Assembly (NCBI GenBank): GCA_964513375.1 | Contig: CAZEMO010000003.1 | Coordinates: forward strand, 92,730 to 156,729 | DNA length: 64,000 bases | Origin: an uncultured Bacteriovoracaceae bacterium | GTDB taxonomy: Bacteria; Desulfobacterota; Desulfomonilia; UBA1062 | Direction: 5' to 3' | Shown here: positions 5,168 through 44,740 of the stretch, piece by piece | How the letters are laid out: each line of letters begins with the position of its first letter | How positions within the stretch are numbered: the stretch's first letter is position 1 | Made by a program: the position numbers and the translations under genes | Notes under the pieces: model-generated | The model's database searches: none | Seen by the model: only the letters and a program-made list of their open reading frames with translations | Told to the model about the DNA's origin: nothing

Positions 5168-5184
5168 AGCAAGTCTCATGCCAG
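5168..5184 (-). promoter_or_regulatory. Sigma-54 (-24/-12) promoter reading toward the MBL-fold / C_GCAxxG / CoADR-RHD operon
   Basis: The minus strand reads TGGCAT-GAGAC-TTGCT. GG and GC are spaced exactly as in the TGGCACG-N4-TTGC consensus. The predicted transcription start is about 25 nt upstream of the ATG at 5131. An enhancer-binding regulator gene lies divergently, adjacent. Confidence 0.5.
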
Positions 5185-5275: not shown

Positions 5276-8200
5276 ATGTCCATATATTGCCATTTAACAT
5301 TGCAGTACGTTGTAAATGATGATATCCGTTATCGCGGTATGGGAAAAGAGAACATAAAAAAAGACGGGTATAAACTGTCGCCTGAGCAATTAAAGATGCT
5401 CGCTTTCCTGAATGCGGTTCGAACACAGGTACATATAGATACTGTCGCTGCAATAGTTCAAATACGACCTGCCTCTCTGATTGCACTGATCAATGATGGA
5501 ATACATTCAGGATATCTTGAAGAGACACAGAAGGACGTATACTCTCTTACGGCTGATCTCCCTTCATGGATAGAGTCCGGCATCAGGATAGTCGCTGACA
5601 ACAACTTCTTCCATTCTCTTCTCGGATCGATAGAAAGCATTCAGGCTGCAGACCTGCTTCCAACAAGGTCAATGGCGGCGATTCTTGAGGGTGCGGGCAG
5701 AATGTATGAGGCGGCGTTTGCATACCATGACTCCGCATCGAAATACCTCTTGGAAGACAGCGTGGAAAATAGTCTTGAATGCGAACTGGCTGCCATAGAA
5801 ATACTCAAAAAGGAGAAGTCCTCGAAACACAGAAATTCGCTTTTCGTATCTGCAGTGATGGGACTTTCGGGTCTCTACATACGCCTCTCTCAGGCCCATC
5901 CGGAAATCATCACTCTTCTCAGGGTCGCCAGAAAGATAGCCCTCGGCATGGGCGACAGGAGGTCTTCGGTAATAATAGACCTGCATCTGGGGCGCTACTA
6001 CTTCATGAGCAACAAGCTCTCTGAAACCCTTGATGCCCTGCATAAGGCCGTCGAAGAGCTCGACGGGTTCATGGATGACGATATGAGGGATCAGGCAGGG
6101 CAGTTCGTAGGTCTTTATTATTATCTTCAGGGCAAGTATGAAGATGCGGCCGAGCATCTTGGCAAGGCAATCCATACATCTTCCAATTCACTTTACGGGG
6201 CACCAGATAATATACTGCTTCTGTTCTATGCATTCAGCTGCGCCTGCACCGGGCAGTTTCACAAGGCTATAGGCATCCTAGATGCGGGATGGCGCCGGAC
6301 TTTCAACGCTTCCAAATTCGAACAGACTTTCCATGCAAGGGCGCTCCTCGGATATATTCTTCTGTTGTGCGGAAAGAAGGATGAAGCCCTCGAACATCTC
6401 AAGGCGTCCAGATTTTATGAATGGAAAAACCCGAATGCATTCGGCAGGTGGATCACTGAGGCAGGCTTTGCCATGGAGGCATTCAGGTCAGGGCGCATAA
6501 AGGAAGCGCATGACATACTCATAAATCTTCTTTCAGAAGATATCCACATAAGACAATATCCGGTGCCCGCATTCTTCGAGATGCTTGCCGAATTTGACAG
6601 AAGGAAATATCCGGCAATAATGAACATCTCCTATGAACAGGAGAGACTCCGAATCCTGAAGGGCCCCAATGTTCATCTGAAAGGGGCGGCCTTCAGGATT
6701 ATGGCTCAGAATGTTTCATCGGCTTCTCCTGCAAGTCCTCTGATTGCGAGATATCTCTCGGAAAGCGAGAGGAATCTCGTCTCATCCGGAGATCCGGTGG
6801 AACTGGCCAAGACATACGCCGAGTTTGCAAGATACTATATCCGCAGAAAAAAGAAGGAAAAGGCATCGGAATATGCGATAAAGGCATGGGAGAGCTTTTC
6901 AGGCCTCGGGGACATATACCTTACCGATGATATAAAAAACCTGCTTACCGGCGAAATAAAATCCAGGCCTACGACCGTCGCTCGCGATGACATAACGGCG
7001 AGACTTGTAAAAATGATTGGCGACATCATACCCTCATATGATTCCGACAGCCTTTTCGACAAAGTGCTCGAGGCTATAACCGGATTTCTAAAAGCCGAGC
7101 GCTCTGCTCTGTTTCTCTTCACCAGAGAACAGGGAAAAGCACCGACATTGAAGGCTTCTCAATCCATATCTAAAGACGAGGTCAATGCACCCCCGTTCCA
7201 CAGCGCACTTTCACTGATATTCTCAGCAAGAAAAGTCAAGATGCCCGTATATAAAACACTGACTGACTATAACGGCATTGAGCGCACTGTATTATGCATA
7301 CCGGTAAATGCAGGGCCGGATTTCGATGGCGTCATGTATTTTGAATCCCTTTTCATCGCAGACGCAATGACAGACACGTCAGGTACTGTACCCGGCCTGC
7401 TCATGGATATAGCGGGCGATGCCTTTGCAAAGATAATGAGGCTTGAAACTGCAAGGAACATAACAAAATCATTACCATGTGAAGACATACATCCCTCAGA
7501 CAACAAAGATGATGAAATCATCGCAAAAAGCAGCGTAATGACCGGAATGCTCTCAGAGTTGGACAAGGCAGCCGCAACTGACGCCTCGATTCTTGTAACC
7601 GGAGAAACAGGCACAGGAAAAGAACTTATCGCCAGGCGCATACATAATAGGAGCATGCGTGCGGGAGGCCCCTTTATTACAGTCAACATCGCCGGCATAC
7701 CGGAAACACTCATAGAAAGTGAGCTGTTCGGGAATGAAAAGGGTGCTTTCACAGGGGCAGATTCACGTCACATAGGAAGAATAGAACTGGCCCACACAGG
7801 GACGCTTTTCATAGACGAGCTCGGTGAGATCCCTCTTTCAGTACAGATCAAACTCCTTCGAGTTCTCCAGGATGGGACCTTCAACCGCCTGGGTGGTGGA
7901 AGAAGCATAAAGTCCGATTTCAGACTTGTCACCGCTACAAACAAAGACCTTGAGGCCGAGGTCGAGAAAGGGGGTTTCCGCAGAGACCTGTTCTACAGGA
8001 TCAACACCTTTCATATCCGCGTACCGCCGCTTCGAGAGCGGAAAATCGATATCGTACTTATTTCTGAAGCTTTCATCAGGCACTTCACAAAAGAATTCAA
8101 CAAACCTTACGTCGAGCTTTCGCGGGAACAGCAAGAGGCTCTATTGAATTATCCATGGCCCGGCAATGTCAGAGAATTGAGAAACGTGATCGAACGCAGC

Positions 8201-8434
8201 ATCCTGCTGTCGGACAAAAATTCCATCGAACTCGCCCTTCCGGTATTGCATAATCAGGAACATAAGGACATCTTCTCCGGCACCCCTACCCTCGATGAAC
8301 TTCAAAGACGCTACATAAAACAAGTGATTGAGATGGCAGGGGGAAGAATCTCCGGGAAGAACGGCGCTTCCGCAATCCTTGGAATCAAAAGAACGACATT
8401 GAACGCAAGGATGAAGAAACTGGGCATCCGTTGA
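5276..8434 (+). CDS. Sigma-54-dependent transcriptional activator (enhancer-binding protein, EBP) with a large N-terminal TPR-like region, a GAF domain, an AAA+ sigma-54 interaction domain and a Fis-type HTH
   Basis: AAA+ motifs 'GETGTGKELIARRIH', 'ESELFGNEKGAFTGA' (GAFTGA) and 'ELGEIPLSVQIKLLRVLQDG'. C-terminal HTH 'GKNGASAILGIKRTTLNARMKKLGI'. The real start may be the ATG at 5339, because a TATAAT box overlaps the ATG at 5276. Confidence 0.9.
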   Translation: MSIYCHLTLQYVVNDDIRYRGMGKENIKKDGYKLSPEQLKMLAFLNAVRTQVHIDTVAAIVQIRPASLIALINDGIHSGYLEETQKDVYSLTADLPSWIESGIRIVADNNFFHSLLGSIESIQAADLLPTRSMAAILEGAGRMYEAAFAYHDSASKYLLEDSVENSLECELAAIEILKKEKSSKHRNSLFVSAVMGLSGLYIRLSQAHPEIITLLRVARKIALGMGDRRSSVIIDLHLGRYYFMSNKLSETLDALHKAVEELDGFMDDDMRDQAGQFVGLYYYLQGKYEDAAEHLGKAIHTSSNSLYGAPDNILLLFYAFSCACTGQFHKAIGILDAGWRRTFNASKFEQTFHARALLGYILLLCGKKDEALEHLKASRFYEWKNPNAFGRWITEAGFAMEAFRSGRIKEAHDILINLLSEDIHIRQYPVPAFFEMLAEFDRRKYPAIMNISYEQERLRILKGPNVHLKGAAFRIMAQNVSSASPASPLIARYLSESERNLVSSGDPVELAKTYAEFARYYIRRKKKEKASEYAIKAWESFSGLGDIYLTDDIKNLLTGEIKSRPTTVARDDITARLVKMIGDIIPSYDSDSLFDKVLEAITGFLKAERSALFLFTREQGKAPTLKASQSISKDEVNAPPFHSALSLIFSARKVKMPVYKTLTDYNGIERTVLCIPVNAGPDFDGVMYFESLFIADAMTDTSGTVPGLLMDIAGDAFAKIMRLETARNITKSLPCEDIHPSDNKDDEIIAKSSVMTGMLSELDKAAATDASILVTGETGTGKELIARRIHNRSMRAGGPFITVNIAGIPETLIESELFGNEKGAFTGADSRHIGRIELAHTGTLFIDELGEIPLSVQIKLLRVLQDGTFNRLGGGRSIKSDFRLVTATNKDLEAEVEKGGFRRDLFYRINTFHIRVPPLRERKIDIVLISEAFIRHFTKEFNKPYVELSREQQEALLNYPWPGNVRELRNVIERSILLSDKNSIELALPVLHNQEHKDIFSGTPTLDELQRRYIKQVIEMAGGRISGKNGASAILGIKRTTLNARMKKLGIR

Positions 8435-8468: not shown

Positions 8469-9095
8469 TTACTCCAGAAGACTCTGCACACATTGGACTG
8501 CGGTAAAAGCATCCGGCGCATAACCGCTGGCACCGATTTTATCTGCAAATTCCTGAGTCACCGGAGTACCGCCCACGATAATTCGTGCTGCCGGATCAAT
8601 TGCCCTTATGGCATCTATCGTCTTCTTCATATTGAGCATGGTTGAGCTCAAAAGTGCTGACAGCCCAAGTATATCCGGTTTCATGTTTTTATAGGCCTCA
8701 ACGAATCTCTCTGTTTTAATGCCTTCTCCCAGATCAACAACCTCATAGCCTGCCCCTTCAATGCACATCCGGACAAGGTTCTTGCCGATGGAATGAATAT
8801 CTCCCTCCACCGTTCCCAGCACCACCTTACCCCGATCTTTAATCTCACCCTTAAAACGTGCTTTCAGACAAACCAACCCCTCTTCCATTGCATGAGCCGC
8901 AACAATCAACTCAGGAATAAAGGCCTCTCCCTGGGCGAAACGCTCACCTATCTCCTCCATGGCCGGCATCATTGCCTGTTCCAGAATTTCCCGCGGTGTC
9001 ATCCCATTATTAATTGCCTCTTCCAAAAGAGAAGTTATTCTTTCATCATCCCCTGACTGAACAGCATTTTTGATATCTTCCAGCGTTTTTATCAT
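8469..9095 (-). CDS. Cobalamin-binding corrinoid protein (MtaC/MtbC-like)
   Basis: N-terminal B12-binding-2 helical cap and the Rossmann B12 domain with the DxHxxG motif 'EGDIHSIGKN'. Confidence 0.85.
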   Translation of the reverse strand: MIKTLEDIKNAVQSGDDERITSLLEEAINNGMTPREILEQAMMPAMEEIGERFAQGEAFIPELIVAAHAMEEGLVCLKARFKGEIKDRGKVVLGTVEGDIHSIGKNLVRMCIEGAGYEVVDLGEGIKTERFVEAYKNMKPDILGLSALLSSTMLNMKKTIDAIRAIDPAARIIVGGTPVTQEFADKIGASGYAPDAFTAVQCVQSLLE

Positions 9096-9115
9096 TGCCT
9101 TTCTCCTTTAATGTT

Positions 9116-10213
9116 TCAAACCTTAATGGGATATGTCCCGTATTTATGCGCCGCCCTCACCATAGCCAGATAATTTTCCGGTTTGCATCCCGGATGTATG
9201 GAGTTGGATGAGCTAATGATGTAGCCTCCGCCGGGTGCAGCTTTGGCTATTGTTTCCTTGACGGTCTGCTCCACTTCTTCCTCTGTTCCGAATGGCAGGA
9301 GATATGTGCAATCGATATTCCCCAGAAGACAAAGGCGGTCTTTATATCCGGCCTTAACCTCTCCTATGTCCATGCACTGGGGCTGATTGGGGTGGAAACC
9401 GTCAAAACCAGCCTCTGCTATATCGTCAAGAATGGGCCCCATATTCCCGTCCGAATGCTTGATGATTTTTAGCCCCCGTTCATGGGCGCGAGCCACTATC
9501 TCCTTATGGAACGGAAAGATGAATTGCCTGTATTGAGCGGGAGACATAAGCGTGGTCTGGTTGAATGCAAGATCGCCATCCAGTGCGAAAACGTTCGCCC
9601 CGAGCGCCGCGGCTTTATCGACCACCTCAAGTATGTAGTCAGTTACGATTCGTCCGAGATCCAGAACGAAAGAAGGCTTTTTTATGTAGTAGAACAAAAG
9701 CTTTTCCATACTGCCCAGAAGCGACCAGCTTTCCCTGAAAGGTCCAGGCTGTACAAACACCTGTGCAGTATCGCCGCCCATGCCGCCGGTTGACGCCATA
9801 AGCATGAGAAAATCCATGTCCTGGGGATGATATATCTTGAGATTTTTGAGGTCATCAGGTCCGGATATTGGCCCCCCCACGGAGGTCGCCTCACCTTCTC
9901 CGGCTACATACAGAACACGGCCCCAGCCATCCCTGTAGTGCGTCTCGTCTATTTTCTCCGTAACAGGCAGCGTGATCGAAGTAAGACCATCCAGCTCCAG
10001 AGCCTTGGCAAACGTAAACAGTGTATTGAGAAGCTTGATTTTTTCCTCCATGGTCATCTGGCTTGCGAATTTCATAGGCGGCAGGTCATCAGTGAAGAAT
10101 CTCCCGATCTTGATAATCGATTCTTCATTAAAAGCCATCTCCCAAACCGGAACCCGGTCAGGTTCTCTGCGGTCCAAAGCCGTCAGCATTCTTTCTTTTC
10201 CTGTCATATACAT
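9116..10213 (-). CDS. Uroporphyrinogen decarboxylase (URO-D) family methyltransferase (MtaA/CmuA-like, corrinoid-dependent)
   Basis: 'MLTALDRREPDRVPVWEMAFNEE' and overall URO-D-like TIM-barrel signature. The start was set at an ATG preceded by GAGGG. Confidence 0.8.
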   Translation of the reverse strand: MYMTGKERMLTALDRREPDRVPVWEMAFNEESIIKIGRFFTDDLPPMKFASQMTMEEKIKLLNTLFTFAKALELDGLTSITLPVTEKIDETHYRDGWGRVLYVAGEGEATSVGGPISGPDDLKNLKIYHPQDMDFLMLMASTGGMGGDTAQVFVQPGPFRESWSLLGSMEKLLFYYIKKPSFVLDLGRIVTDYILEVVDKAAALGANVFALDGDLAFNQTTLMSPAQYRQFIFPFHKEIVARAHERGLKIIKHSDGNMGPILDDIAEAGFDGFHPNQPQCMDIGEVKAGYKDRLCLLGNIDCTYLLPFGTEEEVEQTVKETIAKAAPGGGYIISSSNSIHPGCKPENYLAMVRAAHKYGTYPIKV

Positions 10214-10328
10214 ACCCTCTCTTGCTAATTGGATTTTGTATAACAATTTTAAATCCCTGCATTACTTGATGGCTTTTGTCAAATGTTTCAGCAGTTTTTT
10301 ACTTCTCATCTACTATTTTTTTAAATGA

Positions 10329-10356
10329 TTGACTTATTTGAGTATTCAGCTAAAAT
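10329..10356 (+). promoter_or_regulatory. Sigma-70-like promoter (TTGACT, 16-nt spacer, TAAAAT) upstream of the PKD/FGE lipoprotein gene
   Basis: Read directly from the sequence. It lies about 50 nt upstream of a GAGGGGG RBS and the ATG at 10406. Confidence 0.35.
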
Positions 10357-10405
10357 TGTAGAGTTATTTTATCGTTTCTTATAACAAAAATATGAGGGGG
10401 ACATC

Positions 10406-12250
10406 ATGAAGAAATCTTATTATTTAATACCTTTTATCAGTTTAGCTTTGATTCTGAGCGGATGCATACTTTCCAAGTCGCCTTCCACTGATTCAGTTTC
10501 CATGAATCTCGGCGATCACCAAGTATTCAGCGTGAAAATCTTTCCGTCTAAAGCAGTATATACCTGGACTCTGGATGGAGCGGCTTTGCCTAACACAGGG
10601 AATTCTTTTATTTACACAGCACAAGCCGGGCAACACTTTCTTACTGTCCGGGCAAAGCACAGTTTAGGCACTGATACCCAGTCCTGGGATATCACTACCT
10701 TTAACACTGCGCCGGTTGCCAGTGCGGGCCCTGATCAAACAGTATCAGTTAATACCAATGTAACCTTAAATGGCTCCGGCTCTTTTGACCAGGATAACAA
10801 CATTGTTTCTTATCAGTGGCAGCAGATAGACGGTCCTTCAGTAGAGCTGAACAATGCATATACTGCCATTGCAAATTTTACAGCATCTGTTGCAATAGGG
10901 TCCACTTTGACCTTCAGGCTGATCATTATAGATGCCGATGGACTTCAGTCAACCGATACATGTTCCGTTACAGTTGAGCAGCTAAACCATAATCCAATCG
11001 CCAATGCCGGCCCTGATCAATCAGTTATTGCAAATGCAACTGTAGTTTTGAATGGCTCCGGCTCTTTTGATCCTGATAATAATATTGTTTCTTATCAGTG
11101 GCAGCAGATATACGGACCTTCCGTTACCCTTAACGATGCAGACACTGCCATTGCAAGCTTTACAGCATCTGTCGAATCTGATTCTACACTGTTGTTTATG
11201 CTGACAGTTACAGATGCTGACGGACTACAGTCAACTGATACATGCTCTGTCACAGTTCCGCAGCCAAACCAGAGCCCTGTCGCTAATGCCGGTCCTGATC
11301 AGAGTGTTTCTGTAAATTCGACCGTTACTCTCTATGGCGCAGGTTCAACCGACCCGAATAATGACATTGTTTCTTATCACTGGCAGCAGAAAAGCGGGAC
11401 TTATCCATATGTAACTCTGACTAATGCGGAAACGGCCATTGCACAGTTCACAGCTACGGTTCCAATAGGAAGAGTACTGACATTTGAGCTTACTGTGACT
11501 GATGCGACAGGACTTCAATCGACAGATTCCTGTGATGTGTCAGTCTCTGTGATCAGTTCTCCTATCACCGACTTGCTTAATTCCATGATCTATCTTCCTG
11601 CCGGTACTTTCATGATGGGCAGAGAGGGCGAATATGCAGCCACCCCTGTCCATCAGGTGAACGTGCAGGGATTCGGAATCGGTGCATACGAGGTAACCCA
11701 GGCACAGTATAAGGCGGTAATGGGTGAGAATCCCTCATATTACCAGGGGCCGAGTTACCCTAACAGCGAAAACAGGCCGGTTGAACTGGTAAGCTGGGAT
11801 AATGCACGCGAATTCTGCGCCGCCCTGTCTGCCGTCACGGGACGAAACTTCACATTGCCGAGTGAAGCCCAGTGGGAATATGCCTGCAGGGCCGGGTCTG
11901 ATACCCTTTTCAGCTTCGGAGATGATGATTCACTGCTTGGCAATTATGCCTGGTACATTTTGAATTCAGGCAATCAGACGCATTACGTCGGCACAAAACT
12001 TCCAAACGCGTGGGGGCTCTACGACATGCACGGCAACGTCTCTGAATGGTGTCTGGATTCATGGCATGAAGATTATACCGGGGCTCCGTCTGACGGCAGC
12101 GCCTGGGAGCCTGATGCCGGTATCGATAGGGTTCTTCGTGATAACTCCTTTGCTTTCTCCGCGAGTGATTTGCATTTGGCGCGTCGTACTTACTCACATC
12201 AGTACACCGGTACCAATAGTTGGGGGTTCCGCATAGTCGAAATCCCTTAA
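10406..12250 (+). CDS. Lipoprotein with an N-terminal paralog-shared module, three PKD domains and a C-terminal FGE-sulfatase (DUF323 / SUMF1-like) domain
   Basis: Lipobox 'LILSGC'. Three repeats of 91 aa carry 'AGPDQxV...LNGSGSFDxDNNIVSYQWQQ'. The C-terminal domain carries 'LPAGTFMMG', 'RPVELVSWDNAREFC', 'LPSEAQWEYACRAG' and 'WGLYDMHGNVSEWC'. The FGE catalytic Cys pair is absent. Confidence 0.85.
   Translation: MKKSYYLIPFISLALILSGCILSKSPSTDSVSMNLGDHQVFSVKIFPSKAVYTWTLDGAALPNTGNSFIYTAQAGQHFLTVRAKHSLGTDTQSWDITTFNTAPVASAGPDQTVSVNTNVTLNGSGSFDQDNNIVSYQWQQIDGPSVELNNAYTAIANFTASVAIGSTLTFRLIIIDADGLQSTDTCSVTVEQLNHNPIANAGPDQSVIANATVVLNGSGSFDPDNNIVSYQWQQIYGPSVTLNDADTAIASFTASVESDSTLLFMLTVTDADGLQSTDTCSVTVPQPNQSPVANAGPDQSVSVNSTVTLYGAGSTDPNNDIVSYHWQQKSGTYPYVTLTNAETAIAQFTATVPIGRVLTFELTVTDATGLQSTDSCDVSVSVISSPITDLLNSMIYLPAGTFMMGREGEYAATPVHQVNVQGFGIGAYEVTQAQYKAVMGENPSYYQGPSYPNSENRPVELVSWDNAREFCAALSAVTGRNFTLPSEAQWEYACRAGSDTLFSFGDDDSLLGNYAWYILNSGNQTHYVGTKLPNAWGLYDMHGNVSEWCLDSWHEDYTGAPSDGSAWEPDAGIDRVLRDNSFAFSASDLHLARRTYSHQYTGTNSWGFRIVEIP
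10709..11557 (+). repeat. Three tandem in-frame repeats of about 273 nt (the PKD domains) inside the lipoprotein gene
   Basis: Near-identical stretches such as 'ggctccggctcttttga...attgtttcttatcagtggcagcagata' recur at 273-nt spacing. Confidence 0.8.
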
Positions 12251-14271: not shown

Positions 14272-16404
14272 CTAACGCCAAGTTCTAACAACCACCGGAA
14301 GCCAGAGACATGACTGATTCTCCCGGTCATGCCATAAAAAGGCGGTTCCGGGTTTCCTTGACTGAAGGAAAAAATAATCGGAAGTCGAAACAGTAAGCCT
14401 TATCCTGTGCCCCTTTTTTATAAAGCAGGCCATGGCCCTTAAATCTGTCTGATGGAGCTGGACATTGCTTTTTACAGCCATCGCCTTTTCGGTATAGACC
14501 CTGAGCGGCGTAACGCCGTTGTTAAGAACCCTGGCATCGGCATTGATCTTTTCTGCGCCCAGGCTGTCATCCGAATTTATCGAACTTCCCGGTGGGACAT
14601 CATAGAGCTTTATGAAACAGGTTATGTCCGTAGAATTCGAAGAGAGGTACAGCTCAACGAGGGGTATGCCTGTTATTTCAGCATCATCTTTGAACGGTTC
14701 GCTTTCAAATGTGACCGATGTTTCGGTCGAATCAAACGGTTCCGGCGGTTCAGGCAGCGAGCCCTGGATTGCCTGAATTTCAGAAAGGCTTGTCTTTGCA
14801 AGCGGGATGTTCCTGAACTGGCTGCAGAGTGCTTCACTGTCATAATCAAGTGACGAGGCGTCATATTCTACCTTACCGCCTCCATTTTTTGCGCATTTCA
14901 GGTAGTTCTTTCCACCTGTCGAATGAAGCATCAGCTTCATCTCGCCGCCTTTTTCAACAAGCGGCCAGCTTCCGTAATATCTTGCCGCGTCTCCATCCGG
15001 ACCCACGATATCGTATGAAAGTTCAGGTCCGGTATCGACGTCGATGCCACTCAGATATCTGTCCATCCATTTGAGCACGATCTCTTCGTTATAGGGCGGG
15101 TTCTCGGGCAGATAGCCGTGGCCGCCCGCATACCAGTGCATCTTTGCCTCGATCCCGTTTGCCTGAATCTGCTCGAGATTGGCTATCGCCTGGTTAAGGT
15201 CGAAGACAGTGTCATCCTCGCCCTGTATGAAAAGCGCTGGTGCAAGCACATACTGCGTTCTCGTTGAGGGCGACCTCATCATCAGCTCATCCTTCATGCC
15301 GGGCTTGAATTCGTTTTCCAGCAGCAGAGTAAATATGAAGTCGGTAAGCATAGGATCGACGCCTGTCCCTTTAAGCGCCCTAGCCATACCCTGCAGATAA
15401 AAGCCGCTTGCCCATAGTATCTTGAGCGATTCGCCAGGGCACAGCGCATCAAGCAGATTGTTCCATGTCCTTTCAGGCGTGATGCAGTCTATCCTGTGGT
15501 CATATGATGCTGTCAGCACCTGAAGCGCCCCGCCATATGAGCATCCGTTCATGCCAAGAACGAAATCCCTTGTCTCATCCCCGGGTATATCGTCCTTCTC
15601 CTCTATGTCATCCTGGTTGAAATCATAATTTATGATTTTGCCGTTGTCGAAAAACCACTCCGGCCTGCTTTCCTCAATGACGAACTTCTGCTCTGCAAGC
15701 CAGTTTATAAGCCTTATGGTATCCTTGATTTCATACTGGGTCGAATCGAGTCTGACGATGCCGGTTGATTTGCCCCATCCCCGCGCCGACCAGACAAAGG
15801 TAGCGTACCCCGTATCCCTGAAGTTTTTTGCACGGCCGGCCATTTCATCAAGATCCGAATTCCATCCGTGGCCTATCATGATTACAGGGTATGGTGGCTC
15901 GCCCTTGGGGAGATAAAGCCGGCATTCGAGTTCCTCTCCATCAAAACTTTTAATGAAGAAAACTTCGCTTTCCCTCGGCGAATTGATGCCGCCGTTCTTC
16001 GGATCGCCGTCGATCGCATCCTGCAGCAGATCGCCATCAGTATCTCTTGGGTATACAGTTACAATGCACGTGTCCCCGGCTGTTTGTCCGTCAATTCCCG
16101 TGATTGTGACTTGAACGGTATATTTACCCGGGGCCTTGTAAACATGACCGGCCTGAAAACCGCTTGCACAGGTATTGTCGCCGAAATCCCATTCAACGTA
16201 CTGTGCGTCGCATGCGGGTGTAGCAAATGTGATTTTTTCAGACATATCGATTTTTCTGTCCGGGCCTGCATCTCCGACAAGATATAATTTAGGCGATTCT
16301 TCAGATGAGGCGCTGTTGTCTCCCGAGTTATTGTTTGAACAACCGGCAGTTAAAAACAGAACAATTATTGCCAGCCATATAAGATTTGAAGTTCCTCGAT
16401 GCAT
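14272..16404 (-). CDS. CocE/NonD family hydrolase (S15 X-Pro dipeptidyl-peptidase-like alpha/beta hydrolase) lipoprotein with an N-terminal PKD-like domain
   Basis: The track start is a TTG. The start was reassigned to 'MHRGTSNLIWLAIIVLFLTAGC', which has a lipobox. Motifs are 'VIMIGHGWNSD', the nucleophile elbow 'GCSYGG' and the C-terminal beta-sandwich domain typical of CocE/NonD. Confidence 0.8.
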   Translation of the reverse strand: MHRGTSNLIWLAIIVLFLTAGCSNNNSGDNSASSEESPKLYLVGDAGPDRKIDMSEKITFATPACDAQYVEWDFGDNTCASGFQAGHVYKAPGKYTVQVTITGIDGQTAGDTCIVTVYPRDTDGDLLQDAIDGDPKNGGINSPRESEVFFIKSFDGEELECRLYLPKGEPPYPVIMIGHGWNSDLDEMAGRAKNFRDTGYATFVWSARGWGKSTGIVRLDSTQYEIKDTIRLINWLAEQKFVIEESRPEWFFDNGKIINYDFNQDDIEEKDDIPGDETRDFVLGMNGCSYGGALQVLTASYDHRIDCITPERTWNNLLDALCPGESLKILWASGFYLQGMARALKGTGVDPMLTDFIFTLLLENEFKPGMKDELMMRSPSTRTQYVLAPALFIQGEDDTVFDLNQAIANLEQIQANGIEAKMHWYAGGHGYLPENPPYNEEIVLKWMDRYLSGIDVDTGPELSYDIVGPDGDAARYYGSWPLVEKGGEMKLMLHSTGGKNYLKCAKNGGGKVEYDASSLDYDSEALCSQFRNIPLAKTSLSEIQAIQGSLPEPPEPFDSTETSVTFESEPFKDDAEITGIPLVELYLSSNSTDITCFIKLYDVPPGSSINSDDSLGAEKINADARVLNNGVTPLRVYTEKAMAVKSNVQLHQTDLRAMACFIKKGHRIRLTVSTSDYFFLQSRKPGTAFLWHDRENQSCLWLPVVVRTWR

Positions 16405-16801
16405 CTTTGAATACCCCCCCCACTTAAGCAATCATAATAACAGTATCAACAGCAAATACTCATACAATAATTTAGAACTGTCAAGAAAAGACCGTCAGGA
16501 GTCTTTTCGCAGGGTAATATTTTTTAAATTATAATTTAAGTTAGCACCTCAGATGCTGTGATGGTTAGTGTCTGCTGTGTCTATCCTTGATTATCTCTGC
16601 ATGCTTTAAGATTTCAGTTTTTTCAGTCATCGTGCAAAAAGATCGTTATTTTACAATCAGCGTGTCCCTTATTGATTAGCTGATGAGTTCCTTAGATGAC
16701 TAGTAAAATCAAAGGCTTTAAGTTTTTCCTTAACAACTTATTATCTCAACAGCTATTATGTCCCGAATAGGAAGCGGAACATGTAATATAAGAAAGATTG
16801 A

Positions 16802-18879: not shown

Positions 18880-20670
18880 ATGCCAATGAAGATATCTGAA
18901 AAATCTCCCGGTCTTCTGATTGTCGCTGCAGCACTCACAGTCTCATGCCTCATTTTCACTGGGTGCAACAAAATGAACATTGTCGCCTGGTACATGGGGC
19001 TTCCCCAGCCCCAGTACAAGATCAAGGTCACCGAAGGCGTCATGATCTCCATGAGAGACGGAGTGAAGCTGGCAACCGACCTTTATATGCCGGATAAGGC
19101 AGGCAAATACCCGGTAGTGCTCATCAGGACAATGTACGGCAGGCAGAATAAGGAGCATGGATACGATACCATAGCAAAAATATTCACATCTCAGGGATAC
19201 GCCTTCCTGGTTCAGGATGTAAGGGGCCGCTTCGATTCCGGGGGAGATTTTTATCCCTACATATACGAGGCCGCCGACGGTTATGATACTGTCGAGTGGG
19301 CAGGCACACAGGAATGGAGTACCGGCAAGGTCGGGACCATCGGCGCATCCTACTGGGGGTCAACGCAGTGGCTGCTTTCACCCAATTCAAGCAAATATCT
19401 CAAGGCCATGGTTCCCATAAACACCAGCCAGGATGTCTACCCGCGCTGGATATACTACAGCATCTTCAGGATCACTGATGTACTTGCCTGGTTTTATGAA
19501 AACGCCCCGCGCAGGGGAAGGAGTGTTGAAGGCATCGACTGGAACAAGGCTGTCTCCACGCTCCCGCTCATCAAGGCGGATGATTCGCTCGGTGAGAATA
19601 TCCCGGCCTACAACGACTGGATAAACCATCCTGTCCCGGGGCCCTACTGGGACAGAATACGTGTGGACAACAAGGTGCAGCAGATCACGGTTCCGGCCAT
19701 GATCATCGAAGGCTGGTACGACTATTATCTGGACCTGGCTCTGAATGATTTCAACCGCATGAGAAACGAAAGTGGAAGCGCTGAAGCGAAACAAAGCGTC
19801 CTCATGGTCGGCCCCTGGACCCACACCATGAAATCGAAGTTCTCAGACGCAGATTTCGGCAAGGAAGCATCATTTATAAAACAGTACAAACTCGTTATCG
19901 ACTGGTTCGACTACTGGTTGAAGGGTAAGGACAACGGTATCCTGTCAAAGGGGCCGGTAAGGATATTCACCATGGGGTCAAACACATGGAAAACAGAAAA
20001 AGAGTGGCCGCCCAAAAATGTCAAATACGAAGATTATTTCCTTCACAGCGACGGCAATGCAAACGGCCTGGAGGGTGTAGGGAAGCTCTCGAAGGCCATG
20101 CCCGGCAGCGAGAATTCTGACAATTACGACTACGACCCGGCCAATCCGGTCCCATCGATCGGCGGCACTTCGATTTACGGCAGTCTCAAGGCAGGCCCCT
20201 GTGACCAGAAAACGGTCGAGTCGCGCAGGGATGTGCTGATTTATACTAGTGCGCCGCTCGAGGCTGATATGAATATCACAGGACCCGTGAAGCTGATCTT
20301 TTACGCCTCTTCTTCTGCAAAAGATACCGACTTTGCCGCAAAACTGACCAATGTCCATCCGGACGGAAAATCCGTCAACATCCAGGCCGCAGTGATCAGG
20401 GCGAAGTACCGCGACTCCTTCGAAAAACCCGCGCTTCTGGAGAACGGAAAGGTGTACAGGTTCGAGATGCTCATCGGCTCTACCAGCCTTCTCCTTAAGA
20501 AGGGCCACAGGATAAGGCTGCAGCTCACATCATCCAATTTTCCGGAATACGGAAGAAATCTCAACACCGGTGATGACAACGGCACAACTTCCGCCATGGT
20601 GATGGCTTCGCAGGTTATCTATCACGATGCCGATCACCCCTCTAAACTCGTACTGCCGGTGATTCCGTGA
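18880..20670 (+). CDS. CocE/NonD family hydrolase (S15 X-Pro dipeptidyl-peptidase-like) lipoprotein
   Basis: Lipobox 'IFTGC'. 'VVLIRTMYGR', 'FLVQDVRGRFDSGG', the nucleophile 'GASYWGSTQW' and the C-terminal 'LQLTSSNFPEYGRNLNTGD' beta-sandwich. Confidence 0.85.
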   Translation: MPMKISEKSPGLLIVAAALTVSCLIFTGCNKMNIVAWYMGLPQPQYKIKVTEGVMISMRDGVKLATDLYMPDKAGKYPVVLIRTMYGRQNKEHGYDTIAKIFTSQGYAFLVQDVRGRFDSGGDFYPYIYEAADGYDTVEWAGTQEWSTGKVGTIGASYWGSTQWLLSPNSSKYLKAMVPINTSQDVYPRWIYYSIFRITDVLAWFYENAPRRGRSVEGIDWNKAVSTLPLIKADDSLGENIPAYNDWINHPVPGPYWDRIRVDNKVQQITVPAMIIEGWYDYYLDLALNDFNRMRNESGSAEAKQSVLMVGPWTHTMKSKFSDADFGKEASFIKQYKLVIDWFDYWLKGKDNGILSKGPVRIFTMGSNTWKTEKEWPPKNVKYEDYFLHSDGNANGLEGVGKLSKAMPGSENSDNYDYDPANPVPSIGGTSIYGSLKAGPCDQKTVESRRDVLIYTSAPLEADMNITGPVKLIFYASSSAKDTDFAAKLTNVHPDGKSVNIQAAVIRAKYRDSFEKPALLENGKVYRFEMLIGSTSLLLKKGHRIRLQLTSSNFPEYGRNLNTGDDNGTTSAMVMASQVIYHDADHPSKLVLPVIP

Positions 20671-25507: not shown

Positions 25508-26395
25508 TCAGTCTGAAAAGCTTGTAGAGCAGCTGACACCCAGCTGTTCATATATCTTGAGTGTGGCGCACGCCGCGTTAAGCGTATAGAAATGCACGCC
25601 CCTGACCCCGTTGTCAATCAGGTCCCTGACCTGCTCGGTCGCCCAGTGGATGCCTACCTTTTCCGCAAACCGGTCGTTCTCGGCGCGGAGAACGGCCTTC
25701 TGGAGTCGGGCCGGAATCCTTGCCCCATCGGTCTTTTCGGATATCTTCACCATGCTGTTCCTGCCCAGAACGGGCATTATTCCGGCAATTACAGGCACTT
25801 TAATCCCGATCAGCTCACAGCGCTCTCTGAAATCATAGAAGTCACGGTTGTCGAAAAAGAGCTGCGTGATTATGTAGTCTGCACCGGCGTCGACCTTGGC
25901 CTTCAGATAATCCATCTCCAGGAGCCTGTTCGGAGTTGCCGGGTGGCCTTCCGGGTAACCGGCGACACCTATGCACATGTCCGGATAGTTCTTCTTTATA
26001 TATGTGATGAGTTCAGAGGCATACCTGAATCCGTTCGCCGGCGTATCCCATATCTGGCCTGCTGGAGGGTCACCCTTAAGTGCCAGTATGTTCTCGACCC
26101 CTGCCTCCTGATATCTGTCCAGTATCCTTTTTATCTCATCCCTTGCGGCATTGACGCATGTCAGGTGGGAAACCACGGTGAGACCAATCTCGTTTTTGAT
26201 CCTGATAACAAGGTCGTGAGTGTTCTCGCGTGTCGAACCGCCTGCACCGTAGGTTACGCTTACCCATGAAGGCTTGAGGTCCTTCAATTCCGATATGGTG
26301 TTAAAAAGCTTTTCCCATCCGGGTTCAGTCTTTGGAGGAAAGAACTCGAAGCTGAATGTGATTTTGGACTGGTTAAGAATACCAACTACTTTCAC
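25508..26395 (-). CDS. metF: Methylenetetrahydrofolate reductase
   Basis: 'SFEFFPPKT' and 'VSVTYGAGGSTRENT' are MTHFR signatures. Confidence 0.9.
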   Translation of the reverse strand: MKVVGILNQSKITFSFEFFPPKTEPGWEKLFNTISELKDLKPSWVSVTYGAGGSTRENTHDLVIRIKNEIGLTVVSHLTCVNAARDEIKRILDRYQEAGVENILALKGDPPAGQIWDTPANGFRYASELITYIKKNYPDMCIGVAGYPEGHPATPNRLLEMDYLKAKVDAGADYIITQLFFDNRDFYDFRERCELIGIKVPVIAGIMPVLGRNSMVKISEKTDGARIPARLQKAVLRAENDRFAEKVGIHWATEQVRDLIDNGVRGVHFYTLNAACATLKIYEQLGVSCSTSFSD

Positions 26396-32022: not shown

Positions 32023-32250
32023 TTAAAGATCTCCCCTGCCTGATATTTCGACCTTTGACTCAAGGAGTTTTCTGATTTTTTCCTCATCCACCTGTTCAAT
32101 CCGCAGACATACACCGCAGTTTGAACTTATGTGTCTTGGAACAGGAATAAGCTTGTGCGATACGCCCTCTGCTTTTAATATTTTTTCAGCCATCATCGCA
32201 TGGCTGACCGATTCAAAAAGCAAAGCGACATATTCTCTGACAGGACTCAT
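32023..32250 (-). CDS. DUF3343 family protein
   Basis: 75 aa. 'IPVPRHISSNCGVCLRI' is the characteristic motif. Confidence 0.65.
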   Translation of the reverse strand: MSPVREYVALLFESVSHAMMAEKILKAEGVSHKLIPVPRHISSNCGVCLRIEQVDEEKIRKLLESKVEISGRGDL

Positions 32251-32846
32251 GGTTTGATCAGTCTGGTTGCTGATGACATGACTGAAAGAATCTCGAACAT
32301 GTTTGTAATCTTTCCCGCTCCGGTTTTGCCGGACAGGTTAAAGAAATTGACGCATGTGCCGCACAGAAGAATCTCCACTCCGGCATCGGTAAGGTTTTCA
32401 AGGTCTTCCAATACTTCCGAATCAACTGCCGCCAATTTGACACCCGCATTGTAAAACAGCAGTTTTGAAGGAAGCTCATCCGCTTGAATTAGGGTATGAA
32501 TGAACGCCTTCATGAGAACCTTTCCAAGTTCGTCATCTCCCCTCCCCATTGTTTCAGAAGAGATCACGGCGACCAGTTCGCCCGATGAAGCGCTGCATGA
32601 GACTGGAACATCCGCAATAGCAGCCGTTTCGATATTCACCCCTGTCATATGTATATTGAATTCGCTTTCCCCGGAGTTCTCGATTTCCACTGAACAGCCT
32701 AGCTTTGCTCCCAGCCTTCTGACGTTTTCCATTGCAGTTTTATTATCGACGATGACAACGATGCTCTCGTTTTCTTCAAGGGCTTTTTTTGCAAGGATAA
32801 CCGGCTGCGGGCAGTTCAAACCGCGTGCATCAACGGTTTTCTTCAT
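32247..32846 (-). CDS. yedF: YedF-like protein: TusA-like domain plus DsrE/DsrF-like domain
   Basis: N-terminal 'RGLNCPQPV' CPxP motif. C-terminal 'VISSETMGRGDDELG' and 'LLCGTCVNFF'. Confidence 0.7.
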   Translation of the reverse strand: MKKTVDARGLNCPQPVILAKKALEENESIVVIVDNKTAMENVRRLGAKLGCSVEIENSGESEFNIHMTGVNIETAAIADVPVSCSASSGELVAVISSETMGRGDDELGKVLMKAFIHTLIQADELPSKLLFYNAGVKLAAVDSEVLEDLENLTDAGVEILLCGTCVNFFNLSGKTGAGKITNMFEILSVMSSATRLIKP

Positions 32847-32860
32847 ATTTCAAACTCCTT

Positions 32861-34027
32861 TCATGAACTTCGGCTGATTTCATATAGAGCCTTCAGGCTG
32901 TAATCTATCTCTTCTTCCGTATTGAAATACGCGAAACTGAACCGCAAGGTGCCCGCCGGGAATGTCCCGATTGTTCTATGAGCTTGTGGCGCACAGTGGA
33001 GGCCGGGCCTGCACATTATATTATATTTTTCATCCAGGATAAGGGAAGCTTCCGACGGGCTTATGCCTGAAAGGTTGAATGAAACAACAGCAATCCTGTC
33101 CGAAACCAGCTGCGGCCCGTAAACAATTGCACCTTTTATCTTTTTCAACCCTTCAATGAATTGAGAGATGAGCGACACCTCCTTATCCCTGATTATATCG
33201 ACTCCAGTTTTTTCTATGAACCGGATGCCGGCATTGAGGCCTGCAATCCCGATTGCGTTCGGCGTTCCCGATTCATATTTATCAGGCATGAAATCAGGCT
33301 GCTGCTCAAATTCAGATTTGCTGCCCGTGCCCCCGGACATTATTGGAGAAATAGCTTGTTCCAGTCCCTTTCTTATATAAAGTCCCCCAGTACCCTGCGG
33401 CCCGAACAAAGATTTGTGCCCTGTAAAAGCAAGAATATCGACACCCATGCCTTTGACATCAATCGGTAATGCGCCTGCTGTCTGTGCAGCATCCGCACAG
33501 AATATTATTCCGTGATCCCGTGCAATACGCCCGACTTCGGTAACAGGCATGACTGCGCCTGTAACATTTGAGGCATGAGTCAGGTATATCGCCCTGGTAT
33601 CCGGCTTTATTGCACGCCTTATACCATCCGGGTCAAGCATGCCTGTTTCGGAACAGCCTACGATATCAAGCCTGACGCCTGACAATTCCAATGACCTTAA
33701 GGGCCGCATGACTGAGTTATGCTCCATGCTTGAAGTTACGCAGTGGTCTCCAGGTTTCAGCAGTCCTTTTATTGCTATATTGAGAGCTTCTGTGGCATTT
33801 TTAGTGAGTACAATACGCAGAGGATCATCAGCCCCTAAGATACTGGCTATTCTATCCCTTGCCTCGAATATGACCCTTCCTGAATCAATGGACTTTTTGT
33901 GGCCAGACCGGCCAGGACTGGCCCCGATTCCGACGCTGAAATCCGTCATGGCCTCTATCATTGATTCCGGCTTTGGCCACGAAGTAGCAGCGTTGTCGAA
34001 ATAAACAGTTTCCACCTGTATGATCAC
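32861..34027 (-). CDS. Cysteine desulfurase family protein (class-V aminotransferase)
   Basis: 'YFDNAATSWPKP', PLP lysine 'FTGHKSLFGPQGTGGLYI' and a C-terminal Cys loop 'RPGLHCAPQAH'. Confidence 0.85.
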   Translation of the reverse strand: MIIQVETVYFDNAATSWPKPESMIEAMTDFSVGIGASPGRSGHKKSIDSGRVIFEARDRIASILGADDPLRIVLTKNATEALNIAIKGLLKPGDHCVTSSMEHNSVMRPLRSLELSGVRLDIVGCSETGMLDPDGIRRAIKPDTRAIYLTHASNVTGAVMPVTEVGRIARDHGIIFCADAAQTAGALPIDVKGMGVDILAFTGHKSLFGPQGTGGLYIRKGLEQAISPIMSGGTGSKSEFEQQPDFMPDKYESGTPNAIGIAGLNAGIRFIEKTGVDIIRDKEVSLISQFIEGLKKIKGAIVYGPQLVSDRIAVVSFNLSGISPSEASLILDEKYNIMCRPGLHCAPQAHRTIGTFPAGTLRFSFAYFNTEEEIDYSLKALYEISRSS

Positions 34028-35214
34028 TCCGTAATTTCCATAAGTGCCTGCACCCTTGTTTTTATCTGTTTAATATCGCTTTCCGAATAATCTGTCTCAA
34101 TCTTCAGGAACGGCAGGCTGTGTCTTGTCTTTACGTGCTCCCTCACCCTGAATGATTCGATGTTGTACGCATGGCATGCATGGAGGATTACGTCAATCAC
34201 CATGTCTGGCCTGTATTTTTCAATCAGTTCATCAAGCTTGTTTAGCCTTCTATCATTGGGTGACATGCATGAGCAGTGGAGATCCATATACCGTTCTGAC
34301 AGTGCCATCACAGGGTCGTCAGTGTCTTCGGCAATTGTTCCCATAAAGGGCTTAAACCCCGTACAATTATCGATGGCGACAATGACGCCACCGGACTCTT
34401 CTACGGCACGATAGACCTTCATGGCATCACCGCCGACAGGACACCCCGTTATGAGAACACGAGGCAAATCGGCACTTCCAATCGAGAGACACTGCTCTTT
34501 CCTTATCTGAAGTTTCTTTAGACAATCTTCAAGGATGGGTTTCATATCTTCATATGTTGCAGGCTGGGCAAGATATGTAAGGTCATATATCTCGGCCCAT
34601 TTCAGATATGAAGGTTTCATTGCAGCATAGCTGAAAATCTGTTCAAGCAGCTTGTTCTTCATGTTTGAATCCCTGATCTCGTTCTCGATAGCTGAATCAT
34701 CGATTTTAACCGAAAAGGTCTCTTCAAAGAACGACTGAAGGTTTCTTATTATCTGAGCCCAGTTTTTCCTTGCTGTCATACTGTCGGGCATTTGCGGAAG
34801 GTCCATCACATACATTGGTTTTTTATCCGCGATAAGTTCAAACATCTTTTTTTTGCCGTCACAGGTGGTTTCAGCGACAACCGCTTCGGATAAAGCGAAA
34901 AACGGGCATGAATCCGATATTATGAACCCATAGCTGGATTTGATGAGAGGGCACAGATTTGAAGGCAATACAGACTCGGAAACATCAATCGTCTTATTTG
35001 AAAAAGCGCACAGAACTGCGGGGACCGCACCCATTGCCCTGAAAAGTTCCAGAGGCGCAAAACCGCAGTAGGTACCGATTATGGGCCTGCCTTCTTCCCT
35101 CTTCGACTGTATATATGACAGAGCCCTTTTGCTCGGCTCGCCAGCAAACTGATCGTTAAAAAGTGGTTCAATAGTATTGTCTTTGAGCATAATCACCTCA
35201 TTTGCTTTTTTCAT
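34024..35214 (-). CDS. HgdB/BcrC/BadD family protein (2-hydroxyacyl-CoA dehydratase D-component-like, possible double-cubane-cluster protein)
   Basis: 'GRPIIGTYCGFAPLELFRAMGAVPAVLC' is the hallmark of the HGD-D family, and there are multiple conserved Cys. It overlaps the desulfurase gene by 4 nt. Confidence 0.7.
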   Translation of the reverse strand: MKKANEVIMLKDNTIEPLFNDQFAGEPSKRALSYIQSKREEGRPIIGTYCGFAPLELFRAMGAVPAVLCAFSNKTIDVSESVLPSNLCPLIKSSYGFIISDSCPFFALSEAVVAETTCDGKKKMFELIADKKPMYVMDLPQMPDSMTARKNWAQIIRNLQSFFEETFSVKIDDSAIENEIRDSNMKNKLLEQIFSYAAMKPSYLKWAEIYDLTYLAQPATYEDMKPILEDCLKKLQIRKEQCLSIGSADLPRVLITGCPVGGDAMKVYRAVEESGGVIVAIDNCTGFKPFMGTIAEDTDDPVMALSERYMDLHCSCMSPNDRRLNKLDELIEKYRPDMVIDVILHACHAYNIESFRVREHVKTRHSLPFLKIETDYSESDIKQIKTRVQALMEITE

Positions 35215-41754: not shown

Positions 41755-41773
41755 GTTAAATAAGGGAGGGCAA

Positions 41774-43645: not shown

Positions 43646-43750
43646 ATAAATTTCATAAGATGCAAAGTATGATTTCTAAATCATGGGGGGATGCGATCTG
43701 TCGTATCTGTCTAGTTATAAAAAGAGTAATAAGCAGGAGGTAATTTTTAT

Positions 43751-44740
43751 ATGGATTTCAGGAAAGTTCCCAGCAAGGAATCGCTTCTGGACAAATCGAA
43801 GAAGCATCTGTTCATGTTTTCCCACCACGACGATGAAATCGTATGCGCAGGGATAATACAGAGGCTGCAGCCGGGTGCTGCACTCATGTGGCTGACGAAT
43901 TCGGACGGCCTTTATTTCAAGGAGAACGTCACACCCGAAGAGTATGGAAAAAAACGTGTCGCCGAAGGATGGAACGTTTCGCGCGAACTGGGTTTCAGGG
44001 ATGAGGACGTCACCAACGGGCTTTATTCCGAAGTGGACAATTACAGGCTCTTTGTGGACTCGATCAAGAGCGAGGCGCAATTCGAAGAAGGCATTTCTTT
44101 CTGGAGAAAACAGGGCCGCGACATTTACGCCAAGATAAAGAAACACGACCCGGACATAATCTGGACATATGCATTCCAGGGCGGCATGCCTGAGCATGAT
44201 CTTACCCATGTCCTGACAGCTGCTTGTATAGACAGCTACGAGAAGGAGTTCGGAAAGAAAATCCAGATGGTGGAGATCCCGGCATACGAACTTACCGTTC
44301 TCATCTCCTTCCGCTTCAATCCCTGGTATAAGGGAACCAAGTATTACATCGACATGACGCGTGAAGAGCTCTTAAAGAAGCTTGCTGCCGCCTTTCACTA
44401 CCCTTCGCAGGTTGAGCTTATAGAGAAATTCAGGAAAGTCATCGACAATCTCGGCAAGGCCTCTGGCCTCATCGGAAAGCCTTTTAATTTCGAATCATAC
44501 TGCGGCAGGGAATATTTTGCGCCTGTCTGCGAACCGCGTGACTATTCGAGACCCCCCTACCGTATAGACTTCTTCAACTACATGTTCGATGACTATCTGG
44601 GTGAGCCTGTCAAATTTATCGGCATGATGGACAGAATTTTTCATGAACTCTCAAAACCCGTGTTTCATATCAGGCAGGAAAACGCCGTTGATGACGAGTC
44701 GCATTCCTGCCACCAGAAAGGCTGCGCATGCTGTGAATAG
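43751..44740 (+). CDS. PIG-L/LmbE-like deacetylase family protein with a Cys-rich C-terminus
   Basis: 'LFMFSHHDDEIVCAGII'. The tail is 'SHSCHQKGCACCE'. Confidence 0.7.
   Translation: MDFRKVPSKESLLDKSKKHLFMFSHHDDEIVCAGIIQRLQPGAALMWLTNSDGLYFKENVTPEEYGKKRVAEGWNVSRELGFRDEDVTNGLYSEVDNYRLFVDSIKSEAQFEEGISFWRKQGRDIYAKIKKHDPDIIWTYAFQGGMPEHDLTHVLTAACIDSYEKEFGKKIQMVEIPAYELTVLISFRFNPWYKGTKYYIDMTREELLKKLAAAFHYPSQVELIEKFRKVIDNLGKASGLIGKPFNFESYCGREYFAPVCEPRDYSRPPYRIDFFNYMFDDYLGEPVKFIGMMDRIFHELSKPVFHIRQENAVDDESHSCHQKGCACCE

Follow-up and report, generated by a model that had tools for sequence, protein, structure and literature searches.

A conserved gene pair for a probable corrinoid methyl-transfer module in a widespread, uncharacterised UroD-superfamily clade

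We analysed a 64,000-nucleotide stretch of contig CAZEMO010000003.1 (assembly GCA_964513375.1, positions 92,730 to 156,729 of the forward strand; hereafter the window) from an uncultured bacterium placed by GTDB in the Desulfomonilia. Two adjacent minus-strand genes encode a corrinoid (B12-binding) protein and an enzyme of the uroporphyrinogen decarboxylase (URO-D) family (Table 1). A first-pass annotation, made from the letters alone, had read them as an isolated corrinoid methyltransferase pair with neither a second methyltransferase (MT-II) nor a reductive activase. Both open reading frames (ORFs) lie as described there, with a gap of exactly 20 nt that holds the AAAGGAG site. The ORF proposed for the URO-D protein, 9116-10246 (-), is correct at its 3' end; its TTG start at 10246 was merely that of the longest ORF. 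The true start is most likely ATG 10207, because the homologues are 363-366 aa long and begin with MTGKER and because an AGAGGG ribosome-binding site lies 7 nt ahead of that codon. The two genes probably form an operon and are co-transcribed, since the short spacer carries the ribosome-binding site of the downstream gene, and tight spacing, or overlap, of the two genes recurs in homologous loci. No sigma-70-like promoter was matched on the minus strand upstream of the operon, where scan counts were not above those of shuffled sequences, and no sigma-54 consensus was found in 10208-10405 or otherwise upstream of the pair. An RNA element such as a cobalamin riboswitch was rejected as well, as Rfam gave zero matches across the whole window.

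Table 1. Coordinates of the gene pair and its adjoining non-coding segments
Feature	Position	Strand	Remarks
URO-D-fold methyltransferase gene (probable function), uncharacterised clade	9116..10207	-	363 aa; longest ORF reaches TTG 10246; Pfam URO-D
Intergenic spacer, 20 nt, with AAAGGAG ribosome-binding site of the corrinoid-protein gene	9096..9115	-	direct sequence reading
Methyltransferase-type corrinoid protein gene	8469..9095	-	208 aa; B12-binding_2 cap and Rossmann B12-binding domain, His-on motif
Upstream intergenic region, common with the divergent lipoprotein gene	10208..10405	.	presumed seat of the operon promoter

The corrinoid protein matched Pfam B12-binding_2 (E 1.4e-22) and B12-binding (E 9.5e-25), both above the cut-offs. 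The DxHxxG motif noticed at first pass is part of a complete base-off/His-on signature (DxHxxG-x41-SxL-x26-GG), which reads D99-I-H101-S-I-G104, 41 residues, S146-A-L148, 26 residues and G175-G176; the His ligand is present as H101. The best match in the PDB was the Moorella protein 1y80 over the full length (E 2.6e-53, 184 bits), and the MttC-type protein 7xcn matched at 150 bits, while B12 photoreceptor-type proteins reached only about 38 bits. The domain order and the DxHxxG/SxL/GG motif are the same as in Moorella thermoacetica 1y80, MttC, MtgC and MtbC. The protein falls below the curated cut-offs of every substrate-specific corrinoid-protein model of NCBIfam (TIGR02370, 175.6 bits against 215.3; MtgC_2, 188 against 370) and is not assignable to a known substrate system.

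The partner enzyme belongs to the URO-D family, as proposed (Pfam URO-D, E 3e-34). Its identity as HemE was rejected, the HemE model TIGR01464 scoring 35.4 bits against a cut-off of 302.95, and no haem-biosynthesis genes were found among the Pfam-scanned ORFs of the window. The label "MtaA/CmuA-like" had to be dropped: TIGR01463 (MtaA/CmuA) reached 75.4 bits against 235.4, PRK06252 78.3 against 244 and the MtaA_Meth equivalog 62 against 400, each of these matches covered only residues 168-369, identity to MtaA was 21%, and the thiolate zinc site is absent. Among solved structures, the best sequence match was MtaA 4ay7 at 40 bits.

The enzyme is part of a large clade. In a word-indexed search, more than 120 clusters matched at 54-100% identity, every one of them under the generic name "uroporphyrinogen decarboxylase family protein". 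When all of 1.84 billion representatives were scanned with HMMER, 9643 matched at E<1e-3, and 349 half-identity clusters did so at E<1e-30. With each GTDB species represented by a single genome, a further scan yielded 401 loci of the clade, and the best 80 of the 401 were surveyed for genomic context. These 80 all come from metagenome-assembled genomes (MAGs) of uncultured sediment and subsurface lineages, namely Desulfomonilia and other Desulfobacterota, Actinomycetota (Ca. Solincola, Geothermincola, Anoxymicrobiaceae), Dehalococcoidia, Spirochaetota, Leptospirales, Holophagae and others. The closest matches to the window protein were locus L004 (97%) and locus L005 of a Desulfomonilia MAG (94%), and URO-D identity between Desulfomonilia and Actinomycetota was 73-77%. 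Source names of close and distant relatives, mostly "uroporphyrinogen decarboxylase (family protein)", were not informative of identity. Literature searches on Geothermincolia with corrinoid, and on the URO-D family with corrinoid protein, found nothing on the clade. The Bathyarchaeia "MtgB" MT1 was considered as a relative and rejected as a member of an unrelated family of about 300 aa.

An AlphaFold (AF2) model of the URO-D protein was built from 17 family members (predicted local distance difference test score, pLDDT, 87.9; predicted template-modelling score, pTM, 0.90) and shows a URO-D TIM barrel. Its top Foldseek match in the PDB was MtaA 4ay7 (E 4e-16, TM 0.74/0.80, 21% identity), with UroDs next. 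When aligned to 4ay7, the zinc ligands of MtaA (H-I-C...C) stand opposite H251-S-D253...N335. The residues conserved in the family are H251, D253, D269, H272, Q275-P-Q-C278-M, N297, D299, S333, N335 and H338. Among 117 full-length clade representatives, H251 and D212 are present in all 117, D253 in 113 (Cys in 4), D299 in 111, N297 in 109 and N335 in 95, with His at the last position in 19. The model places H251/D253, H272/Q275/C278, N297/D299 and S333/N335/H338 at the C-terminal ends of four successive beta strands or immediately beyond them, which would be the active-site position of a TIM barrel. According to a preprint (Kountz & Balskus, PMC10418091), S-methyltransferases of the UroD superfamily have a His-Cys-Cys site, and in the O-methyltransferases one or both Cys are replaced by a carboxylate or by non-coordinating residues. 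By that rule, the window protein would be an O-type methyltransferase because His-Asp-Asn fills the three ligand positions of MtaA.

Linkage of the corrinoid gene was scored by tblastn, and only loci with enough downstream sequence were counted. At URO-D identities of at least 67%, the corrinoid gene lay directly downstream in all loci except L029, and this strict linkage spans Desulfomonilia, Actinomycetota (Geothermincolia), Dehalococcoidales, Spirochaetota and Leptospirales. Among three loci at 65%, two had the corrinoid gene (L022, L041) and one did not (L035); the Dehalococcoidia group at 62-64% had none nearby, and about half of the group at 51-57% had one, either before or after the URO-D gene. 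Identity of the corrinoid proteins drops in step with that of the URO-D proteins across the loci. Natural fusions were found in two proteins (P0132, 604 aa; P0261, 610 aa), which join an N-terminal DxHxxG corrinoid domain to a C-terminal URO-D domain and carry the KHSDG...SSNS motifs of the clade. On this sequence evidence of conserved linkage and natural fusion, the two proteins are very likely direct functional partners.

The fusion proteins and their cluster members sit on short metagenome contigs. At L029 (10001-11200) the pair looks degraded, as the URO-D match ends at residue 312 and only 94 corrinoid-protein residues follow; a pseudogene or a fault of assembly may account for this.

Between the window, L005 and L093, whose proteins are about 94% identical, DNA homology was restricted to the two genes. 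The pair appears to behave as a two-gene cassette, because the flanks differ even between such close copies, and L004 has the pair with a lipocalin gene and is without window positions 10300-12134. That the pair stands alone is not peculiar to the window but is conserved in a cassette found across phyla, a point that the first-pass annotation had overlooked. The 92%-identical contig L004 lacks the window's lipoprotein gene at 10406-12250, whose product has three PKD domains and an FGE-sulfatase domain, and there the lipocalin gene directly flanks the pair; the difference is an insertion or deletion between close relatives.

To survey the other genes of the window, a Pfam scan was run on about 55 of the 68 listed ORFs, namely the longest ones that do not overlap and that reach 150 aa (nested and antisense ORFs and those shorter than 150 aa were left out). 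No MtrH, Pterin_bind, MttB, MtaB or RACo domain was found in these ORFs, and the earlier claim that the 64-kb window holds no second methyltransferase or activase stands for this set. Around the homologous pairs, no MtrH or pterin-binding protein and no RACo were found within ±8-10 kb in about a dozen Pfam-annotated loci. When 80 putative operon mates at 76 loci were sorted by family, no MT-II or activase was among the 25 families listed; these included MFS transporters (9), FGGY kinases (5-6), penicillin amidases (5), short-chain dehydrogenases (SDRs; 4), carboxylesterases (3), 2-hydroxyacid dehydrogenases (3), acyl-CoA ligases (2) and Amidohydro_2 proteins (2). Two downstream genes were considered individually. 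A gene of about 278 aa after the corrinoid gene in four loci was rejected as an MT-II, being a short-chain dehydrogenase in the two that were scanned (L066, L080) and assumed alike by length and position in the others (L074, L077). A 184-aa gene after the pair in L021/L091 encodes a lineage-restricted membrane protein with no homologue in the window.

Several genes with links to one-carbon (C1) or B12 metabolism occur in some loci. The metF gene at 25508-26395 (-), which the first-pass annotation had cited as a fitting C1 context, does encode a methylenetetrahydrofolate reductase (MTHFR, 322 bits). The contextual argument is weak, since the gene is 15 kb away, on the upstream side of the minus-strand operon, with more than 12 unrelated genes on both strands between. 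MTHFR is not a recurrent neighbour: among the annotated homologous loci it was seen only in the lineage L091/L092, two genes from the pair. Support from metF for a C1 role of the pair is at most faint. A CdhD-like gene lies 2.4 kb from the pair in L095. In Phaeobacter, genetic evidence connects DUF1638, along with a RamA-like protein, to B12 reactivation (PMC5764234); a DUF1638 gene adjoins the pair in four loci, and no homologue is present in the window. These four belong to one actinobacterial sublineage, in which the gene stands directly after the pair and convergent to it (L098, 9772-10446 (-); L014, 11843-12496; L019, 11766-12401; L020, 1881-2534).

Four genomes (DYIU01, CAVXKM01, CAYPZH01, CAZGWK01) hold a pair-type copy together with a 54-56% paralogue that has no corrinoid gene of its own and is followed by an FGGY kinase gene; in a fifth (JAFGDU01, L052), the contig ends after such a paralogue, before the downstream gene. 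The FGGY-linked paralogue could share the corrinoid protein of the pair. Geothermincolia-type genomes contain up to three different URO-D plus corrinoid pairs within 14 kb (L098, 1878-13199; L085, 13491-18313; also L014, L019 and L012). The stacked paralogues are 388 and 412 aa long, with about 26-28% identity to the window protein, and their neighbours include an FGGY kinase, a saccharopine-dehydrogenase-like protein, an aldo-keto reductase, an acyl-CoA ligase and a 3-hydroxyacyl-CoA dehydrogenase, with no MT-II or RACo at these loci.

The pair was compared with known corrinoid systems. With the OdmB, VdmB, MtvB, MtoB and CdmBCA systems it would share a URO-D-fold substrate-specific methyltransferase (MT-I) with a small His-on corrinoid protein, a non-thiolate site and a CH3-Co(III) carrier. 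As in that O-demethylase/haloalkane group, the Cys ligands are replaced. The known systems of the group normally encode an MT-II beside the MT-I and the corrinoid protein, and often an activase, whereas for the clade of the window pair neither was found in cis in the window or the annotated loci. CdmB (9rui), a chloromethane MT-I and the only characterised member of the group that was compared, is remote from the window protein (26.7 bits, E 2e-5), no closer than human UroD (about 27 bits), and is without the His and Asp conserved in this clade. The MtaA/MtbA/MtsA and CmuA group (TIGR01463) supplies the best structural match and the best sub-threshold family models and likewise works with a cognate corrinoid protein, but it differs in its low identity and model scores and in having His-Cys-Cys in place of His-Asp-Asn. 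Bacteria are not expected to use coenzyme M (CoM) as a methyl acceptor. Since the closest genome matches of the window are labelled Desulfomonilia, a bacterial class, its host is most likely a bacterium, in contrast to the setting of MtaA-type transfer to CoM.

In the published view, MT-I, corrinoid protein, MT-II and often an activase usually cluster, with the mlp clusters as an exception. Type 1 mlp clusters combine UroD-superfamily methyltransferases and a corrinoid protein with no tetrahydrofolate (H4folate) methyltransferase and are widespread in anaerobes (PMC10418091). The window pair resembles them in having a UroD-superfamily enzyme and a corrinoid protein without a clustered H4folate methyltransferase. 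It is not of this type, however: mlp clusters have two or three Mlps, a Ram/RACE activase and His-Cys-Cys sites for S/Se chemistry, whereas the pair has one URO-D enzyme, no activase and His-Asp-Asn.

The data indicate that the pair is a real, conserved two-gene corrinoid methyl-transfer module of a widespread, uncharacterised UroD-superfamily clade, and it is highly probable that the two proteins act as a corrinoid-dependent methyltransferase pair. For the roles of the two proteins, we favour, with a probability of roughly one half, a reading in which the URO-D enzyme is the substrate-specific MT-I for an O-methyl donor and the corrinoid protein is its carrier, with unloading and reactivation encoded in trans. 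A URO-D enzyme that is itself the MT-I had been raised at first pass as an alternative, and it fits best with His-Asp-Asn at the MtaA zinc positions. In such a pathway, a small O-methylated compound would bind at the C-terminal mouth of the TIM barrel, where its ether oxygen would probably be activated by a His/Asp(/Asn)-ligated metal or by an acid-base centre. The methyl group would then pass to Co(I) of the 208-aa His-on corrinoid protein to give CH3-Co(III), and would be removed by a tetrahydrofolate-dependent MT-II or by a second URO-D paralogue. A RACo/RamA-type activase, possibly with DUF1638, would from time to time have to re-reduce Co(II) at the expense of ATP. Both the unloading enzyme and the activase would be encoded elsewhere and shared. 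Many anaerobes carry numerous methyltransferase systems, 26 in the case of A. dehalogenans.

Several points weigh against this reading. Neither MT-II nor activase was found in the window or in the dozen or so annotated loci around homologous pairs, and their existence in trans is assumed. The rule that assigns His/Asp/Asn sites to O-methyl chemistry stems from the preprint's survey, not from a test on this clade, and Asn, the third ligand, binds metals poorly. Of the more distant clade members, at 51-64% identity, about half lack a nearby corrinoid gene, and parts of the clade may for this reason work differently. The clade is also without a characterised member: source names are generic or, in two cases, automatic homology labels (P0272, "methylcobalamin:coenzyme M methyltransferase"; the fusion P0297, "MtbC1/uroporphyrinogen-III decarboxylase").

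Alternatively, the pair could be a self-sufficient two-component shuttle that needs no second methyltransferase, either like MtsA/MtsB or like an in vitro shuttle of an MT-I and its corrinoid protein. In favour of a shuttle, the two genes move as a cassette between unrelated genomic surroundings, and none of the loci examined has a second methyltransferase next to them; type 1 mlp clusters are likewise without an H4folate methylase. In Methanosarcina, the URO-D family enzyme MtsA carries out both half-reactions together with MtsB. A thiol-trap system for guaiacol demethylation is said to consist of one O-demethylase MT-I and its corrinoid protein, with no MT-II. A report on such chemistry (PMC10946705) describes cobalamin-dependent methyltransferases that demethylate guaiacol derivatives anaerobically with thiols as methyl traps. 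However, MtsA-type chemistry needs a His-Cys-Cys zinc site, which the URO-D protein lacks, no acceptor can be named, and an activase, also absent in cis, would still be required. The second clade paralogue of some genomes could, moreover, be the missing partner. We consider a shuttle unlikely.

Slightly less probable still is a reversed role, in which the URO-D enzyme would act in the manner of an MT-II, taking methyl groups off the CH3-Co(III) protein and handing them to a conserved acceptor; the substrate-specific MT-Is, with the FGGY-linked paralogue among the candidates, would then be variable and encoded elsewhere. The 73-77% identity across phyla is more in keeping with a universal acceptor than with a niche substrate, four genomes combine a pair-type copy with an FGGY-followed paralogue that has no corrinoid gene of its own, and the best NCBIfam matches, although sub-threshold, are to methylcobalamin:CoM methyltransferase models. 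Passing a methyl group from CH3-Co(III) to an oxygen nucleophile is unfavourable chemistry, though, and the enzyme has neither a thiolate-type zinc site nor a pterin-binding fold. The closest orthologue counted here (94%, L093) lies inside a substrate-processing, glycan-degrading operon, where an MT-I would be expected.

That the pair is not a methyltransferase at all, and that a URO-D-fold decarboxylase or other TIM-barrel enzyme is merely co-located with a B12 sensor or carrier, is very improbable: many members at 51-64% identity without a nearby corrinoid gene do stand beside kinases, transporters or signalling proteins, and PAS/GGDEF/HD-GYP genes are frequent neighbours, but the fusion proteins join both domains, linkage is strict in the close clade, the B12 protein scores 150-184 bits to methyltransferase corrinoid proteins against about 38 bits to the photoreceptor type, and the HemE score is only 35 bits against 303.

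Within the favoured MT-I reading, neighbouring genes offer weak and heterogeneous leads to the substrate. Because sugar-catabolic neighbours recur, gene context suggests a carbohydrate-derived substrate, probably anionic or a deoxy-sugar. In L093/L094 the order is GH78 rhamnosidase, URO-D, corrinoid protein, metallophosphoesterase, Amidohydro_2, NAD-epimerase, GH31 and sulfatase, and in L055 (8112-12662) a GH29 alpha-L-fucosidase (373 bits to 1hl8) is followed by a small ORF, a 55% URO-D paralogue and an FGGY kinase. An FGGY kinase gene (LsrK/XylB-like) lies 20-69 bp after the URO-D gene in 7 loci, and a galactonate-transporter-like MFS gene lies 56-94 bp before it in 7 loci. An FGGY kinase is fused to a 2-hydroxyacid dehydrogenase in L086. 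Further carbohydrate-related neighbours are a GPH sugar transporter, an ILVD/EDD dehydratase with Amidohydro_2 and SDR genes, an FBPase, a 2-hydroxyacid dehydrogenase and, near one homologous pair, a GH2/uxuA/kdgK/LacI block. We tentatively raise the possibility, doubtful as it is, that the clade consists of corrinoid-dependent O-demethylases for methylated sugars or sugar acids from often sulfated polysaccharides; the donors could be 2-O-methyl-fucose, 3-O-methyl-rhamnose, 6-O-methyl-galactose or 4-O-methyl-glucuronate. Other neighbours point away from sugars, including acyl-CoA ligases (L006, L026), HpaB-like and AMP-binding genes (L002) and penicillin amidase or carboxylesterase genes directly upstream of the pair in Geothermincolia. 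The window's own flanks contain no glycoside hydrolase and are uninformative, being a convergent sigma-54 activator gene and the divergent PKD/FGE-sulfatase lipoprotein gene. No paper describing corrinoid demethylation of methylated sugars was found among the titles and abstract openings screened.

Two further observations concern these loci. The 94% orthologue pair of L093 (3-12624) and that of L094 stand in a same-strand cluster. The FGGY-followed 54-56% paralogues without an adjacent corrinoid gene are those of L055, L043, L045, L049, L050, L051 and L054.

Which methylated compounds anaerobes can convert to acetate, CO2 or methane precursors depends on their corrinoid methyltransferase systems. 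If the sugar lead is true, the clade would do under anoxic conditions what P450 sugar demethylases do with oxygen, would pass the methyl groups on to C1 metabolism, and would show how methyl-ether sugars of plant and algal glycans are handled without oxygen. If it is false, the pair would be one more orphan MT-I/corrinoid-protein module of a kind common in anaerobes. The conserved His-Asp-Asn site and the persistent two-gene architecture of this large uncharacterised clade are concrete handles for experiments.

The gene next to the pair on its other side, at 5276-8434 (+), encodes a 1052-aa sigma-54 activator with TPR repeats. Control of the pair by this activator was rejected, as its gene converges on the pair and the only good sigma-54 promoter serves a divergent operon. 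That near-consensus promoter (TGGCATGAGACTTGCT) lies at 5168-5183 (-), ahead of the minus-strand operon 5131->1566, which is divergent from the activator gene and encodes an MBL/ODP-like protein, a C_GCAxxG_C_C protein and a CoA-disulfide-reductase-like protein with a rhodanese domain. Because of this arrangement, the activator probably controls the operon 5131->1566 and not the corrinoid pair.

One region of the window is rich in genes for secreted or lipoprotein hydrolase-like proteins. Two CocE/NonD-type (Peptidase_S15) hydrolases, one with a PKD domain, and a second large FGE-sulfatase-domain protein are encoded at 14272-16431 (-), 18880-20670 (+) and 36926-39379 (+). The genes at 32247-35214 (-), apparently unrelated to the pair, encode an HGD-D (2-hydroxyglutaryl-CoA dehydratase D-like) protein, a class-V aminotransferase/cysteine desulfurase and a TusA-domain protein. 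A 632-aa protein of 11 Sel1 repeats is encoded at 41747-43645, where the region 42001-44000 is a composition outlier with a GC content of 0.384 and a GC skew of +0.24.

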